From Blastocatellia bacterium (GTDB lineage: Bacteria > Acidobacteriota > Blastocatellia > UBA7656), in NCBI GenBank assembly GCA_045807725.1, contig JBJMGV010000126.1:28802-92801 (forward strand): 64,000 bases of DNA, given 5' to 3'. Under the pieces are notes generated by a model. It did not search any database. It had not been told where the DNA came from and saw only the letters and a program-made list of their open reading frames with translations. Every line of letters begins with the position of its first letter. The first letter of the stretch is position 1. The translations under genes were made by a program, and so were the position numbers. Positions 2,523-55,865 of this stretch are shown here, piece by piece.

Positions 2523-2603
2523 CGATTTTGGATTGCCGATTTTGGATTGGAGAGACGCGCTGTTGCGTCAGTCCCTTAATCCAAAATCGGCAATCCAAAA
2601 TCG
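2523..2603. repeat. Palindromic intergenic element (GATTTTGGATT arms) between rpsI and rpsB
   Basis: cgattttggattgccgattttggattgg ... ccaaaatcggcaatccaaaatcg, arms of about 25 bp that are perfect inverted complements. Confidence 0.7.
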
Positions 2604-2604
2604 T

Positions 2605-3006
2605 TTAGCGTTTCGAGAACTGGAAGCGTTTACGCGCGCCCTTCTGGCCGTACTTCTTGCGCTCTTTGGCGCGCGGGTCGCGGGTAACGAAGCCGGCGCG
2701 CTTCAGGCGCGTGCGGAATTCGGGATTGAAATCCATCAACGCCCGCGTCACGCCGTGGCGCACCGCGCCCGCCTGACCGGCCTTGCCGCCGCCATCCACA
2801 TTGACCAGGATGTCGAACTTGCCGACGCTGTCGGTAAGGTGCAGCGGCTGGCGGATCACCATGCGATGCACTTCGTTATCAAAATAATCTTCGAGCTTGC
2901 GCTTGTTGACAATAATTTCGCCGGTGCCGGGCTTCATGAAGACGCGCGCCGTCGCGCTCTTGCGGCGGCCCGTGCCGTAGTTCTGAATCGTCTCTGCCAC
3001 GATCAA
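2605..3006 (-). CDS. rpsI: 30S ribosomal protein S9
   Basis: ...[15 protein letters not shown]...[19 protein letters not shown]...[18 protein letters not shown]; exact start (TTG at 3006 or GTG at 3000) uncertain. Confidence 0.9.
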
Positions 3007-3047
3007 CTCTCCTTCAACTCAATTCGGCGGTGGTCGCCGCCGCGCTC

Positions 3048-3488
3048 TTATCGCTTGACCTCGAACGCCTCGGGCTGCTGCGCCTGGTGCGGATGATCCG
3101 TGCCGACGTAGACCTTCAGCTTCTTGCCCATCTGGCGACCGAGCTTATTCTTCGGCAGCATGCCGCGAATGGCCAATTCGAGTATGCGTTCGGGGTGCTG
3201 TTGCAACTGCTTGCGCGCGGTGATCTCTTTCAGACCGCCGGGCCAGCCGGTGTGATGGCGGTAGACTTTGTCCTGCCACTTGTTGCCGGTGAAGACGACC
3301 TTTTCGGCGTTGATGACGATGACGTGATCGCCGACATCAATGTAAGGCGTATAGGTCGGTTTGTTTTTCCCCATCAACAGGCGAGCCGCCTCGGTCGCCA
3401 GCCTCCCAACGGTCTTGCCGTTGGCGTCGATGATAAGCCACTTGCGGCTCTGCTCAAGATTCTTGCCGCTCGGAACGTATGTGCTCAT
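3048..3488 (-). CDS. rplM: 50S ribosomal protein L13
   Basis: MSTYVPS...[23 protein letters not shown]... aligns with L13; internal ATG chosen. Confidence 0.9.
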
Positions 3489-3753
3489 GGTGCGAATCTC
3501 CAAAATAATCGTAAAGAAGACGAACGGATAGGATACGAAATGGCCTTTGTCTTGTCAAGTTAGACGGCGACACGGATTCGAGCCGCGCCGGCAGCCTCAC
3601 GGTCAGGCCATTTCAATCGCTATGTGGAGAACGACAAGGACGACCGAGTCGAGAATGCGCGGGTAATGATGAAAGCTGACGAGCGACTAGCCTCCGCCGA
3701 TTACAACGTACGTGGGATCACAGTCAGAGAAGATCAAGCAGCCACCATCTCGA

Positions 3754-52911: not shown

Positions 52912-52917
52912 AACCGT

Positions 52918-53285
52918 ATTGTAAATGATGAACGACGAATGATGAATGATGAATGATGAATTGAAGAGGAAAAGGAAGCCGAATCATCTAAGAAAGAGGG
53001 GTCATCTATAGAGCGTGTCTGAAAAACCCTGAAGGGGCGCGATTCGACAGCCCAGGGCATCGCCCTGAGTGAGCGGCGGGGCTAACCGCCAAGCCCTGAA
53101 AGGGCGCAATAACCGATCACCTAGTGCGCCCTTTCAGGGCTTACGGGATTGTCGCTTTGTGTACCCAGCCCGTTGGGCTGGGCTATTGAATCGCGCCCCT
53201 TCAGGGCTTCTCAGACACGCTCTATAAACAATCCCCTGCCGCTATTCATCATTCATCATCCATCGTTCATCATTCTCTTCTTGCT
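52918..53285. repeat. MITE-like element copy B (53003-53222, inverted relative to copy A) nested between mirrored (TGATGAA)n / (TTCATCA)n heptamer arrays
   Basis: atgatgaacgacgaatgatgaatgatgaatgatgaa ... [element] ... attcatcattcatcatccatcgttcatcatt. Confidence 0.65.
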
Positions 53286-53313
53286 TTGACAAGCGGCACG
53301 GCTTCACTATAAT
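53285..53313 (+). promoter_or_regulatory. Near-consensus sigma-70 promoter for the CCP-fusion gene
   Basis: TTGACA, a 16-17 nt spacer, TATAAT; followed by a caggagg RBS and ATG at 53363. Confidence 0.55.
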
Positions 53314-53362
53314 CGCTTCACCCAAACGCATCTCGATCAGACGCATCAGGAGGATTGCATCC

Positions 53363-55750
53363 ATGACCGCATCGGCTAGTCCTGCTCCACTGGCAGAGCC
53401 GCGCACGTCTCGGCGACCGCGCCGTCTCTGGCTCAAGGCGTTGTTGACGCTCATCGTTCTACTCGTCATCGGCTTTATCGCGCTCGGCGCGTGGCCTGCG
53501 CCCAAAGACTTCGCTGGCGAAGAAGGACTCACCGGCGTCAACCCTAATGGCGGCGGCCTGCGTCGTCCGTTCCCGGCAATGGTTCTACGCGACGATAACG
53601 ACACCAACAACGCGAAGTTCAAAGAGCGCGCAGAGCTTGGCCGCTTGCTCTTCTTCGATCCGATTCTTTCAGGTGATAACACGATCTCGTGCGCGACCTG
53701 CCATCATCCCGACCTCGGCTTCGGCGATGCGCGCGGGCTGGCGATGGGCAAAGGCGGTCACGGGCTTGGCGTGGAGCGCGCGGGCGGCGCGGACGTGAAG
53801 CGCGGCGCGCCGACAATCTGGAATTCGACTTACAATCACTTGCAATTCTGGGATGGCCGCGCCCGCGACCTCGAAGAACAGGCTGAAGGGCCGATCAAGA
53901 GCGATGTCGAGATGAACGAAAAGCCCGACACGCTGGTCAGCGAGCTAAAGAACATTCCTGACTACACGCAGAAGTTCGACTCGGCCTTCGGCGGCGCGAG
54001 CGGATCGGGCATCACATTTGAAAACGTCACCAAAGCCGTCGCCGCCTTCGAGCGCACGCTGACAGCTAACAACGCGCCGTTTGATCGTTATGCCGCAGGC
54101 GACCGCTCGGCAATAACGGCGGCGCAAGTGCGCGGCTTCGACCTCTTTCGTTCGGGCCGCACGCGTTGCTTCGAGTGTCACGGCATCCCGACGTTTGCCA
54201 ACCGCGACTTCAAGATCGTCGGCGTGCCTGATCTTGATGCGAGTAATCCAGACTACGGTCGCTTCGACGTGACGAAAGGCGAAGGCAACAAGTACGCCTT
54301 CAAAGTGCCGACGCTGCGCAATGTCGTCTTGAATGCGCCGTATATGCACAACGGCGCATTCAAGACGCTCGAAGAAGTGCTCGACTTCTACGCGGCGGGC
54401 GGCGGGCCGGGCGCTGGCTTCAAAGCCGCGAAGGTGGACGACAAGATTCACACCTACTCGATCACGGCGGAAGAGAAGCAAGACCTGATCGCCTTCCTTT
54501 ACGCGCTGGTGGATGAATCGAACCTGCCGCAGTTCCCTGAGCGCGTGCCATCGGGCCTATCGGTCGTGCCGCGCCTTCATAATCCCGCGCGCGATCTGGT
54601 AGCGAAATACAACACCGGCTCTCCGAAAGAAGAGATGGCCAGCCGCGCGCCGCAAACCATCACCGTCAAGTCGGGCGAATCGATTCAAGCGGCGGTCAAC
54701 CGCGCGCGACCGGGCGACACCATCGAAGTGAGGCCCGGCCTCTACCACGAAGAGATCAAGATTGACCTCGACAACATCACGCTCAGGGGAGTGGTTGACG
54801 CAGGGGCAGCATTCAGTAACGCCACCTTGGGTCGCAATAATCCCCCGTCCGCCTGGAAGCCCGATCAGCCTGTGCTCGATGGCGAAAAGAAGTTATCCGA
54901 TGGGGTGCTCACAACTGGCAGCAACTTTACTATCGAAAATTTCACGGTACGGAACTACATCGCCAATGGCGTGGTCGCGCAACACGCCCGCAACGTGACG
55001 TTCCGCAATTTGGAGATTGATACGACGGGACTCTACGGCGTCTACCCTGTCAGTTGCACCGGCGTCGAGATTGATCGTTGCGTGGCGACAGGCATTGCCG
55101 ACGCGGCGCTCTACGTCGGCCAGTCGCGCGACATACGCGTTCACGACAGCGAAGCCTTCGCCAACGTCACCGGCATCGAGATTGAAAACTCGATCAACGC
55201 CATTGTCGAGAACAACTACGTACATGACAACGCGGGCGGCGTACTGGTCTTCGTGCTGCCGAACAATGTCTCGAAGGTCGGGCGCGATTGCGTCGTCCGC
55301 AACAACCGCATCATCGAAAACAACCACGCCAACTTCGGCAATCCGAACGCGATTGTCTCAAACGTGCCGCCCGGCTCAGGCATACTGGTGATGGCAGCGG
55401 ACAACACCGAAGTCACCGGCAACGAGATTCGCGGCAACCAGAGTTACGGCGTGCTGGTGTGCGGCCTCGAAATCGCTTTCCCGAAAGGCACATCGTTCGA
55501 TGTCGGGGCGACGCCGGAAAATACGTTCATCCACGACAACACCTATACCGAAAACGGCAAAGCGCCTTCGGACAAATACAAGGAAGGCGGCATACCGGGA
55601 GCCGATCTGGTCTGGGATTTGTCGGGCTGGTCGAACCGTTGGAGCGAAAGACAGGCGACGCGCGCTACGCCCATCCTGAATGCGAACTGGCCGACCTTTG
55701 CGCGCCGCGCCGAGTGGCGACTGCTGAAGTTGATGGAGAAATACCTGTGA
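53363..55750 (+). CDS. Membrane-anchored di-heme cytochrome c peroxidase (CCP/MauG family) fused to right-handed parallel beta-helix (NosD/pectin-lyase-like) domain
   Basis: ...LFFDPILSGDNTISCATCHHP... and ...RCFECHG... heme motifs; C-terminal beta-helix repeats from ...GDTIEVRPGLYHEEI... onward. Confidence 0.8.
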   Translation: MTASASPAPLAEPRTSRRPRRLWLKALLTLIVLLVIGFIALGAWPAPKDFAGEEGLTGVNPNGGGLRRPFPAMVLRDDNDTNNAKFKERAELGRLLFFDPILSGDNTISCATCHHPDLGFGDARGLAMGKGGHGLGVERAGGADVKRGAPTIWNSTYNHLQFWDGRARDLEEQAEGPIKSDVEMNEKPDTLVSELKNIPDYTQKFDSAFGGASGSGITFENVTKAVAAFERTLTANNAPFDRYAAGDRSAITAAQVRGFDLFRSGRTRCFECHGIPTFANRDFKIVGVPDLDASNPDYGRFDVTKGEGNKYAFKVPTLRNVVLNAPYMHNGAFKTLEEVLDFYAAGGGPGAGFKAAKVDDKIHTYSITAEEKQDLIAFLYALVDESNLPQFPERVPSGLSVVPRLHNPARDLVAKYNTGSPKEEMASRAPQTITVKSGESIQAAVNRARPGDTIEVRPGLYHEEIKIDLDNITLRGVVDAGAAFSNATLGRNNPPSAWKPDQPVLDGEKKLSDGVLTTGSNFTIENFTVRNYIANGVVAQHARNVTFRNLEIDTTGLYGVYPVSCTGVEIDRCVATGIADAALYVGQSRDIRVHDSEAFANVTGIEIENSINAIVENNYVHDNAGGVLVFVLPNNVSKVGRDCVVRNNRIIENNHANFGNPNAIVSNVPPGSGILVMAADNTEVTGNEIRGNQSYGVLVCGLEIAFPKGTSFDVGATPENTFIHDNTYTENGKAPSDKYKEGGIPGADLVWDLSGWSNRWSERQATRATPILNANWPTFARRAEWRLLKLMEKYL

Positions 55751-55865
55751 CGATTTTGGATTTTAGTTTTTGGATTGACGGAGAGCCGCAGGGATAGCCG
55801 AGGGCGATTTCCCTTAATCCAAAATCGCCGGCGCGAAGCGCTAAGCTATGAAAATCTAAAATCTG
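55751..55865. repeat. Palindromic element with (GATTTTGGATT) arms
   Basis: cgattttggattttagtttttggatt ... aatccaaaatcgcc ... aaaatctaaaatc. Confidence 0.6.

Follow-up and report, generated by a model that had tools for sequence, protein, structure and literature searches.

Palindromic heptamer-repeat elements in the intergenic DNA of Blastocatellia

Here we describe a class of intergenic elements found in a 64,000-nt stretch of DNA from a Blastocatellia bacterium (Acidobacteriota; contig JBJMGV010000126.1, positions 28,802 to 92,801 of the forward strand), referred to below as the window. A typical element consists of a tandem array of a 7-nt unit, a core and the reverse-complement array. We interpret the elements, with a probability of roughly 0.55, as palindromic heptamer microsatellites that would maintain themselves at the DNA level in slots where a hairpin is tolerated or needed, with an arm polarity shaped by translation initiation, and that would serve, when transcribed, as 3′-end or intercistronic hairpins lacking a U-tract. 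This interpretation draws on the architecture, abundance and polarity of the elements, the conservation of their slots, the co-variation of their arms, and the presence of the arrays inside functional RNA stems.

The window is ordinary chromosomal DNA (∼60% GC), with genes including tsf, rpsB, rpsI, rplM, aroA, proS, sucC, glgC, pheA and aroF-like genes. Its S9 protein is 100% identical to one from a Blastocatellia metagenome-assembled genome (MAG), and the closest relatives of its glgC are found in MAGs of Blastocatellia, Pyrinomonadaceae and Chloracidobacterium. The window was compared with 51 Blastocatellia loci and with nine further loci whose S9 protein is 91-97% identical to its own (loci are designated by L numbers). 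Outside Blastocatellia (L053-L080), the best glgC matches are cyanobacterial, with 54-59% identity, which may be due to the peptide patterns of the scan rather than to gene history; the cyanobacterial loci fetched alongside the Blastocatellia loci contain 67 arrays and were used for comparison. Tandem arrays were called with Tandem Repeats Finder (TRF), and inverted arms were taken from a repeat search of the window. An inverted array within 500 nt was counted as an inverted partner. The null model for arrays was a dinucleotide shuffle of the intergenic segments only, and folding z-scores were likewise computed against dinucleotide shuffles.

Abundance, orthologous slots and arm polarity

TRF reports 24 period-7 rows in the window, and 5.3 ± 0.5 are left after the intergenic shuffle, the surviving rows being those in regions called coding. 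Intergenic period-7 arrays thus number ∼19, against ∼0.3 expected, and six period-14 rows are observed against 0.04 expected. All period-7 rows are intergenic except three or four short GC-rich ones, and together they represent 12 distinct canonical units. Among the 44 spacers of at least 30 nt, 12 contain period-7 or period-14 arrays (13 if site 7 is included), or about a quarter. They include 8 of 27 co-directional spacers, 3 of 10 divergent ones and 1 of 7 convergent ones, a similar frequency in all types that does not support a restriction to 3′ ends. Many arrays also register at a period of 21, which corresponds to about two helical turns.

Tandem arrays are present in all 11 regions listed by the initial annotation, which had proposed a constant layout of array, core and reverse-complement array, and a clean palindrome is found at nine of them (sites 1, 2, 3, 6, 7, 8, 9, 10 and 11, numbered here in order along the window). 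The arms are 72-100% complementary; those of site 1 measure 26 nt (100%) and those of site 9 106 nt (72%), marking the two ends of the range. The layout breaks down at site 4, where the arms are only partly complementary, and at site 5, which is one-armed. As proposed, the arm sequence varies between sites, and the elements are wedged tightly between neighboring genes. The description of the arms as heptamer or 11-mer arrays needs correction in part: period 7 dominates, the 11-mer GATTTTGGATT is a 14-mer of two heptamers (GATTTTG GATTGCC), and site 7 has a period of 9-10. An AT-richer core, described as a general feature, is present at only 2 of 10 sites, the remaining cores being equal to or GC-richer than the arms, and this feature was rejected. 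All 11 elements fold far better than their shuffles (z −2.5 to −23). The transcribed strand folds better in three elements, worse in two and equally in three; folding-energy strand asymmetry was therefore dropped as a test of RNA-level selection, and the absence of a consistently favored strand fits symmetry at the DNA level.

The class extends across the lineage, to dozens of independently assembled Blastocatellia MAGs, with arrays in most of the 51 Blastocatellia loci and in the nine further relatives. Among close relatives, related elements outside the stretch covered by the window include one in the pyrH-frr slot of L086 and another at the sucD 3′ end of L081. Candidatus Onstottus arcticum (L003) has 17 arrays and seven inverted pairs in 21 kb, and L021, L027, L034, L038 and L042 are similar. 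Of 117 arrays in the Blastocatellia loci, 62 are accompanied by an inverted partner (median gap 36 nt) and only two by a separate direct one. The ratio of inverted to direct partners is therefore 62:2, compared with 9:1 in the window and 5:6 in the cyanobacterial loci, in which an inverted partner accompanies just 5 of the 67 arrays. Unit diversity is high (107 distinct heptamers among 165 arrays), and the favorite units differ from genome to genome; the commonest unit, GGATTTT, is the same in the window, the Blastocatellia loci and the cyanobacterial loci.

The slot between rpsI and rpsB could be followed in the window and nine relatives (L083-L091), whose rplM-rpsI DNA is 80-96% identical. 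The flanks are nearly invariant, one reading ...AACGCTAA and the other TCCATTGTCGGCTCTTGCGATTGG..., and in every relative a hairpin begins 0-2 nt past the rpsI TAA stop codon. The units in the slot differ. GATTTTG-type units number two in the window, three in L087 and four or more in L088; L084, L085 and L086 have CAGTGGC-type units, L083 and L090 have CAGTTGY-type units, and L089 has (GATTGCG)x4. In L091, the most distant relative, the slot holds a plain 12-bp hairpin that lacks repeats. Within groups sharing a unit type, both members of a stem pair have changed and still pair in 3 of 22 and 7 of 28 cases, and broken pairs are few. On the other side of the hairpin, the ∼100 nt upstream of rpsB (2424-2512 in the window, minus strand) are nearly invariant in L083-L090 despite a wholly different neighboring hairpin. 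This region probably comprises the rpsB promoter and an S2 autoregulatory leader; it has no Rfam match.

A similar turnover is seen in the slot between aroA and the HIT gene, where the unit is CAGTGGC in the window and L086, CAGTTGY in L084 and CAGTTTT in L087, with parallel change in both arms. This pattern is that of concerted evolution, a point variant spreading across an array and reaching its partner arm as well. In the comparisons of L087 with L088 and the window, and of L084 with L086, flipping one core improves the alignment, as expected from recombination between inverted arms. In the L082 ortholog of site 3, the flanks are ∼91% identical and the arms are kept, with a different core that is possibly inverted relative to that of the window; L082 also has a complete mirror copy of a 24-nt segment lost from the right arm of the window element. 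A replacement of the site 3 core was considered and set aside; part of the difference may be inversion, but the flipped alignment scores only weakly above shuffles (7.5 versus 4.0 ± 1.6, maximum 9.5).

The arms have a fixed polarity. In 35 of 40 inverted pairs from the window and the Blastocatellia loci, the 5′ arm contains more G than C (binomial p = 1.4e-6), and because a palindrome reads alike on both strands, this polarity is an intrinsic property of the element. Read in gene sense, stop-adjacent arms are G-rich in 32 of 37 cases and start-adjacent arms are C-rich in 18 of 20. NTG triplets are present in 4 of 41 3′-arm units compared with 24 of 41 5′-arm units, and the Shine-Dalgarno (SD)-like triplets GGA, GAG and AGG in 0 of 41 compared with 11 of 41. 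A stop codon is present in 23 of the 41 5′-arm units. Since a period of 7 places every triplet of the unit in all three frames, the polarity would avoid spurious starts upstream of genes and provide stops in all frames after genes.

Heptamer arrays are also found within a known class of RNA. Cobalamin riboswitch aptamers scoring above the Rfam gathering threshold are present in L027 (5737-5910 and 8932-9133), L038 (6374-6558 and 9576-9798) and L042 (9547-9797), and in these aptamers heptamer arrays build up the long peripheral stem. The stem units (ACAUUUA, GAUUUUG, GAUUUUA and CGAUUUG) vary by copy and by species. Placed there, the arrays belong to transcribed RNA elements and must pair for the stem to form.

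Elements of the window and the repeats nested in them

In element 1 (2523-2603), CGATTTTGGATTGCCGATTTTGGATT forms one arm and its exact reverse complement the other (26 nt, 100%), around a 29-nt GC-rich core. Starting 1 nt past the stop codon of rpsI (minus strand, 2605-2607), the element is located upstream of the conserved leader of rpsB and folds with a minimum free energy of −54 kcal/mol (z −15). Element 2 (4179-4276), in the aroA-HIT spacer, has a (CAGTGGC)n array, a 59-nt AT-rich core and a (GCCACTG)n array, and ends 1 nt from the aroA stop codon. Element 3 (16163-16297) consists of GATTTTA/GATTTTG arrays in the divergent spacer between a cupin gene and the gene for a 567-aa protein; its left arm holds a 48-nt unit also found in element 11, and its right arm is the one without the 24-nt mirror segment of L082. 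Element 4 (26247-26362) has (GTCAGTG)x5.3, a core and (TACTGCC)x4.6, for which the repeat search reports no pair. Its left array lies directly against the start codon of sucC (minus strand, 26244-26246), where an SD sequence is absent, and its right array overlaps the stop codon of a BNR-repeat protein gene.

Element 5 is a composite (36998-37445) of ∼51-nt hairpin units, four direct (36998-37205) and two inverted (37251-37325), followed at 37336-37445 by a one-armed direct array of ATCAACT/CCACTGR heptamers that has small internal palindromes and lacks a left arm. The composite and the right two-thirds of element 9 are homologous. Element 6 (41145-41320; z −8) has (AGTCAGR)x9.9, a core and (TTCTGAC)x4.4, in the convergent spacer between a PNPOx-like gene and an acyl-CoA synthetase/GNAT gene. 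Element 7 (47116-47210; z −11 to −15), between a sigma-factor gene and the next gene, has period 9-10 arms (GATGAACAC/ATCTGTGTYC) and an 18-nt perfect outer stem. Element 8 (48855-48933) has (AGTGATG)x5.4, an 18-nt core and (CACTCAT)x2.6, and is located 4 nt past the glgC stop codon and ∼11 nt before the GntR start codon.

Element 9 (50984-51404; z −23) is a nested palindrome with 106-nt arms that takes up all of its spacer, bounded by the stop codon of the NYN gene (50981-50983) and the ATG at 51405. Its layers, from the outer left inward, are (CAGTGGT)x3.6, (AGTTGAT/AGTTGTG)x11.6 and 51-nt hairpin units, direct then inverted; on the right follow (CACAACT/ATCAACT)x7.6 and (GACCACT)x6.7. Element 10 (52924-53275), in the divergent spacer between ogt and CCP, has (AATGATG)x5.4 (52924-52961) and (ATTCATC)x4.6 (53244-53275), arms that show 94% complementarity in register and share a variant unit in mirrored form. 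These enclose a 238-nt inner palindrome (52998-53235) with an Acido-Lenti-1 motif, and a perfect sigma-70 promoter (TTGACA-16 nt-TATAAT, 53286-53313, plus strand) lies to the right of the element, upstream of the CCP/NosD-like gene. Element 11 (55751-55863), with GATTTTG-type arms and the 48-nt unit in common with element 3, extends from the CCP stop codon to the SD sequence of the MIP/aquaporin gene (ATG at 55874). Two solo arrays were absent from the initial list: a C-rich direct array (CTGAATC CTGTATC)x2.3 at 31142-31173 (plus strand), ending 4 nt before the ATG at 31178, and the 14-mer CTGCATTCATCACC x1.9 at 9530-9556 (plus strand), upstream of proS.

The 5′ arm starts within ∼8 nt of the stop codons of rpsI, aroA, the NYN gene, CCP, glgC, the BNR gene and the PNPOx gene, with a gap of 0-4 nt for all but PNPOx and an overlap with the stop codon for BNR. 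The 3′ arm, a C-rich CCACTGA-type array, adjoins the ATG of sucC and of an indA-like gene (51405) with no SD sequence, compared with clear GGAGG sites at other window genes, and it stops at the SD sequence before the MIP/aquaporin and cupin genes.

Further hairpin repeats are present in the cores of elements 5, 9 and 10. The ∼51-nt tandem unit (36998-37325 and 51092-51295), in direct then inverted copies, ends in TATAG and contains the hairpin GCTCC-GTCA-GGAGC, of which the variants GCCCC-GTA-GGGGC and GTCCC-TAC-GGGAC retain pairing. Acido-Lenti-1 (RF01687) has four matches in the window (39-41 bits, gathering score 37), none of them in heptamer arms. Two of these, 36799-36843 (minus) and 36938-36982 (plus), form the halves of a 214-nt palindrome (36784-36997; 102-nt arms, 79% complementary, 10-nt loop) adjoining element 5. 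The third (53164-53208, plus) is in the right half of the 238-nt palindrome inside element 10, and the fourth (19428-19473) adjoins a 27-mer x4 array. The 214- and 238-nt palindromes resemble doublets of repetitive extragenic palindromic (REP) sequences of the REPIN type, with arms of 102 and 114 nt that are 75-79% complementary. The location of all four matches in nested repeats suggests that Acido-Lenti-1 is a dispersed repeat rather than a stand-alone small RNA gene.

The divergent spacer at the fourth match contains the 27-mer x4 (19326-19433), a long palindrome (19475-19545) and a 52-mer x3 (19568-19721), each unit of which bears two small hairpins, TGCAGGCACTAAAGTGCCTGC and GCCGCTACGCGGC. 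A CRISPR-like reading of the 27-, 51- and 52-nt repeats was rejected, the units being contiguous with no spacers. Elsewhere in the window are genes for a 570-aa protein with an extracellular contractile injection system (eCIS) core domain (28930-30642, minus) and a YoeB-family toxin (11246-11503, minus), and a single tRNA gene (30842-30915, plus).

Maintenance of the elements and alternative explanations

In the process that we favor, arm length would change in 7-nt steps through replication slippage, and a new unit variant would spread along its array and to the opposite arm through arm-to-arm templated repair or recombination, which would occasionally flip the core. Complementarity would be upheld at the DNA level, on both strands, and the elements would persist in narrow intergenic slots where a hairpin is tolerated or wanted, most often beginning 0-5 nt past a stop codon. 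When transcribed, they would probably form 3′-end or intercistronic hairpins and so stop exonucleases or transcriptional read-through. The fixed polarity, with a G-rich 5′ arm and a C-rich 3′ arm, would spare the start-adjacent arm NTG triplets and SD-like purine runs. We infer both slippage with conversion as the mechanism and a role in termination, stabilization or RNA 3′-end formation from the patterns described above.

Several observations weigh against this reading. The RNA 3′-end role is derived from position only, and the elements are equally frequent in divergent spacers (3 of 10); element 10 stands upstream of a perfect promoter, where no mRNA 3′ end is expected, and the transcribed strand has no folding advantage. 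No element has a U-tract, and terminator-like calls in 40500-56500 number 15 compared with 16.8 expected from shuffles, so the terminator-like character suggested initially is not supported in the canonical sense. In the ortholog comparison for presence or absence that had been proposed, all relatives have a hairpin in the rpsI slot; an array directly after glgC is found in only 6 of 50 Blastocatellia loci, including the window, or about the background rate. Positional conservation is thus not general, and conservation after glgC was dropped as evidence of function. In the rpsI slot, the unit type ignores the flanking-gene tree (the nearest relative of the CAGTGGC-type L084 is the GATTTTG-type L087, at 95.8%), so that allele exchange or replacement is needed. 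Solo arrays follow the polarity trend weakly (p ∼0.1). The 7-nt step size has no explanation in the model.

The dispersed copies present a further difficulty. L021 contains three copies of a ∼110-nt element with the same pattern of arm variants, arms ∼90% identical and unrelated flanks, the 48-nt unit is common to the non-orthologous sites 3 and 11 of the window and the 3′ end of sucD in L081, and a composite of more than 300 nt is present twice in the window, as elements 5 and 9. Copies at such unlinked sites would not be explained by in-situ slippage alone, and together with the tree incongruence they indicate that ectopic copying, by conversion, transposition or allele exchange, also operates. 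The elements might then be non-autonomous mobile elements akin to REPs, REPINs or MITEs (miniature inverted-repeat transposable elements), whose terminal inverted repeats happen to be heptamer arrays, mobilized in trans, perhaps by a hairpin-recognizing transposase, with existing hairpins or positions just past stop codons as preferred targets. In addition to the dispersed copies, mobility would account for the mirror-ordered nested layers of element 9, which resemble successive insertions at a hairpin tip, for the two unrelated unit types that occupy one slot among relatives incongruently with the flanking tree, and for the preference of each genome for its own units. We nevertheless consider it unlikely. 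At the three L021 copy boundaries, which were the only ones inspected and were judged by eye, there is no target-site duplication; the 58 window genes include no transposase, RAYT (IS200/IS605-like) transposases among them, and no related autonomous element was seen in the window. Cores are far less conserved than arms (∼50% in the dispersed copies), there are 107 distinct heptamers in 165 arrays, and orthologous slots change stepwise by point mutation through both arms, as in concerted evolution rather than re-insertion. The conserved 20-40-nt palindrome of REPs is replaced here by internally periodic arms that differ from site to site, and there is no consistent GTAG or CGTC tag. A GTAG sequence considered as a REP-like tag was rejected, being part of the unit variant CAGTAGT mirrored in both arms. 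The REP/MITE-like character proposed initially is thus partly supported, with inverted-repeat arms and some dispersed copies in its favor.

The elements might alternatively act as DNA, as cruciform-prone or protein-binding sites that buffer or insulate supercoiling between neighboring genes, comparable to the REPs and bacterial interspersed mosaic elements (BIMEs) bound by gyrase or IHF. Strand-neutral symmetry with no G·U asymmetry favoring the transcribed strand, the period-21 register, the long and nearly perfect arms, and the siting of elements in the promoter regions of divergent spacers or upstream of a promoter are all in keeping with such a role. We regard it as distinctly unlikely, as only 2 of 10 elements have an AT-rich center of the kind that favors extrusion, spontaneous formation of a cruciform is improbable for many elements with cores of 18-280 nt, and no binding protein is known, while the start/stop polarity, the depletion of NTG and SD-like triplets and the use of arrays as RNA stems in riboswitches indicate a constraint at the transcript level. 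The C-rich start-adjacent arms (18 of 20) might instead point to translation control, as has been proposed for the TAACTGA repeats of Beggiatoaceae. The arms would then be C/A-rich leaders that work independently of an SD sequence and bind S1-, Csp- or CsrA-like proteins, with the palindromic partner secondary; the sucC and indA-like start codons that abut CCACTGA-type arrays with no SD sequence, and the solo arrays upstream of start codons (31142-31173 and 9530-9556), C-rich in gene sense, would fit. This is very unlikely, since direct contact with a start codon is seen for just 2 or 3 of the 11 elements, a normal SD sequence follows several elements (at rpsB, the cupin gene and the MIP/aquaporin gene), element 6 lies in a convergent spacer with no downstream start codon, and the inverted partner and stop-codon adjacency are left unexplained. 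Arrays do break assemblies, with a run of N (a scaffold gap, 9670-9769) inside an array of L003 and the contig end of L085 within another; the initial concern that the elements might be an assembly artefact or confined to the window, and likewise the idea of a chance pattern, are nevertheless practically dismissed by the same architecture at orthologous slots in many independently assembled MAGs and metagenome contigs and by statistics far above the shuffled expectation.

A broader proposal, which we consider unlikely, is that a dedicated hairpin-directed process (carried out by an enzyme system, or arising from some special property of replisome or repair) writes and maintains symmetric 7-nt arrays with a G-rich-5′ polarity and swaps hairpin cassettes at fixed slots and in riboswitch stems, in Blastocatellia and possibly also in cyanobacteria, Xanthomonas, Chloroflexus and Beggiatoaceae.

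Relation to known repeats and significance

Heptamer repeats were reportedly noted in cyanobacteria by Mazel et al. in 1990, and later in Xanthomonas, Chloroflexus and Beggiatoaceae; we know of no accepted mechanism or function for them. The short tandemly repeated repetitive (STRR) heptamers of heterocystous cyanobacteria are said to be the subject of the studies of Mazel et al. (1990), Vioque (1997) and Elhai et al. (2008), and Vioque reportedly described STRR sequences within the cyanobacterial RNase P RNA gene. The Blastocatellia elements share with STRRs the period of 7, the many units per genome, the intergenic location and the occurrence of arrays inside an RNA helix, which in cyanobacteria belongs to RNase P RNA and in Blastocatellia is a cobalamin riboswitch stem. 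The units GGATTTT, AGTCAGR and AAAATCT are common to the cyanobacterial and Blastocatellia loci. The two groups of repeats differ in phylum and in the proportion of arrays with an inverted partner (5 of 67 in the cyanobacterial loci, 62 of 117 in Blastocatellia).

Heptamer simple sequence repeats (SSRs) are over-represented in the intergenic DNA of Nostoc, with GGGGA(C/T)T repeats, and of Xanthomonas, where GGGAATC forms 70-75 convergent inverted pairs per genome around a spacer, and the Xanthomonas arrays occupy the gaps that separate the same genes in related species, with the repeat type usually preserved and the length varying (Rehm et al. 2015, PMC4692102). Chloroflexus has (GATAGRA)n heptamers (PMC6749651). 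The initial annotation could match the elements to no named family; they are the Blastocatellia version of the heptameric SSR/STRR class, mostly in its palindromic form and in a new lineage, paired inverted heptamer arrays having been published for Xanthomonas (PMC4692102). As in Xanthomonas, two arrays on opposite strands lie close together and are convergent, and on our reading of the published description "convergent" would correspond to the same G-rich-5′-arm polarity. In Xanthomonas there is essentially one G-tract unit (GGGNATC), with G-quadruplex potential, whereas Blastocatellia have dozens of units, most of them (GATTTTG, CAGTGGC, AGTGATG and AATGATG, for example) with no GGG run, as well as nested layers and other repeat families in the cores. 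TAACTGA repeats in Beggiatoaceae, cyanobacteria and Bacteroidetes are located a few nt from starts that lack a canonical ribosome-binding site, and consist of one unit, almost always direct (with a single inverted case) and oriented toward the downstream gene (MacGregor 2015, PMC4679880). The (CCACTGA)n arrays directly before the sucC and indA-like ATG codons resemble them, whereas the Blastocatellia elements in general are palindromic and mostly abut stop codons.

The REPs, BIMEs and REPINs of γ-proteobacteria are likewise abundant intergenic hairpins, often past stop codons, and form inverted doublets. Protection of mRNA 3′ ends, termination and DNA topology have been proposed as roles of REPs and BIMEs, and REPs near a stop codon can reportedly affect translation, according to Liang, Rudd and Deutscher in 2015. 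Actinobacteria have hairpin ("I-shaped") intrinsic terminators that lack a U-tract. The elements share with these a stable hairpin directly 3′ of a gene with no T-run, in a conserved slot at rpsI that includes a non-repeat hairpin, and differ in that the putative terminators of Blastocatellia are also located in divergent spacers and upstream of promoters. REPs are conserved 20-40-nt sequences that carry a GTAG or CGTC tag and are mobilized by REP-associated tyrosine transposases (RAYTs) (PMC3733652). The Blastocatellia arms, in contrast, are internally repetitive and site-specific in sequence, with no tag and no RAYT gene seen in the window.

No description of heptamer repeats in Acidobacteriota was found in the literature searched, and the arm polarity, the fixed rpsI slot with differing units and the riboswitch-stem arrays are new here. 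The elements have practical consequences: they break short-read assemblies, inflate about a quarter of intergenic spacers and can be miscalled as open reading frames (ORFs), as in the 39-aa "gene" called inside an element of L087 (3542-3661) and in the GntR and cupin genes, whose listed starts were over-extended into arrays. They would also make ready variable-number tandem repeat markers for strain typing. With Blastocatellia, a major soil lineage with many closely related metagenome genomes is added to those known to have heptamer repeats, and because its orthologous slots can be aligned, unit sweeps, copy-number change, core flips and allele replacement can be read directly. The arm polarity, together with the depletion of start- and SD-like triplets next to start codons, provides a concrete, testable link between these repeats and gene expression.

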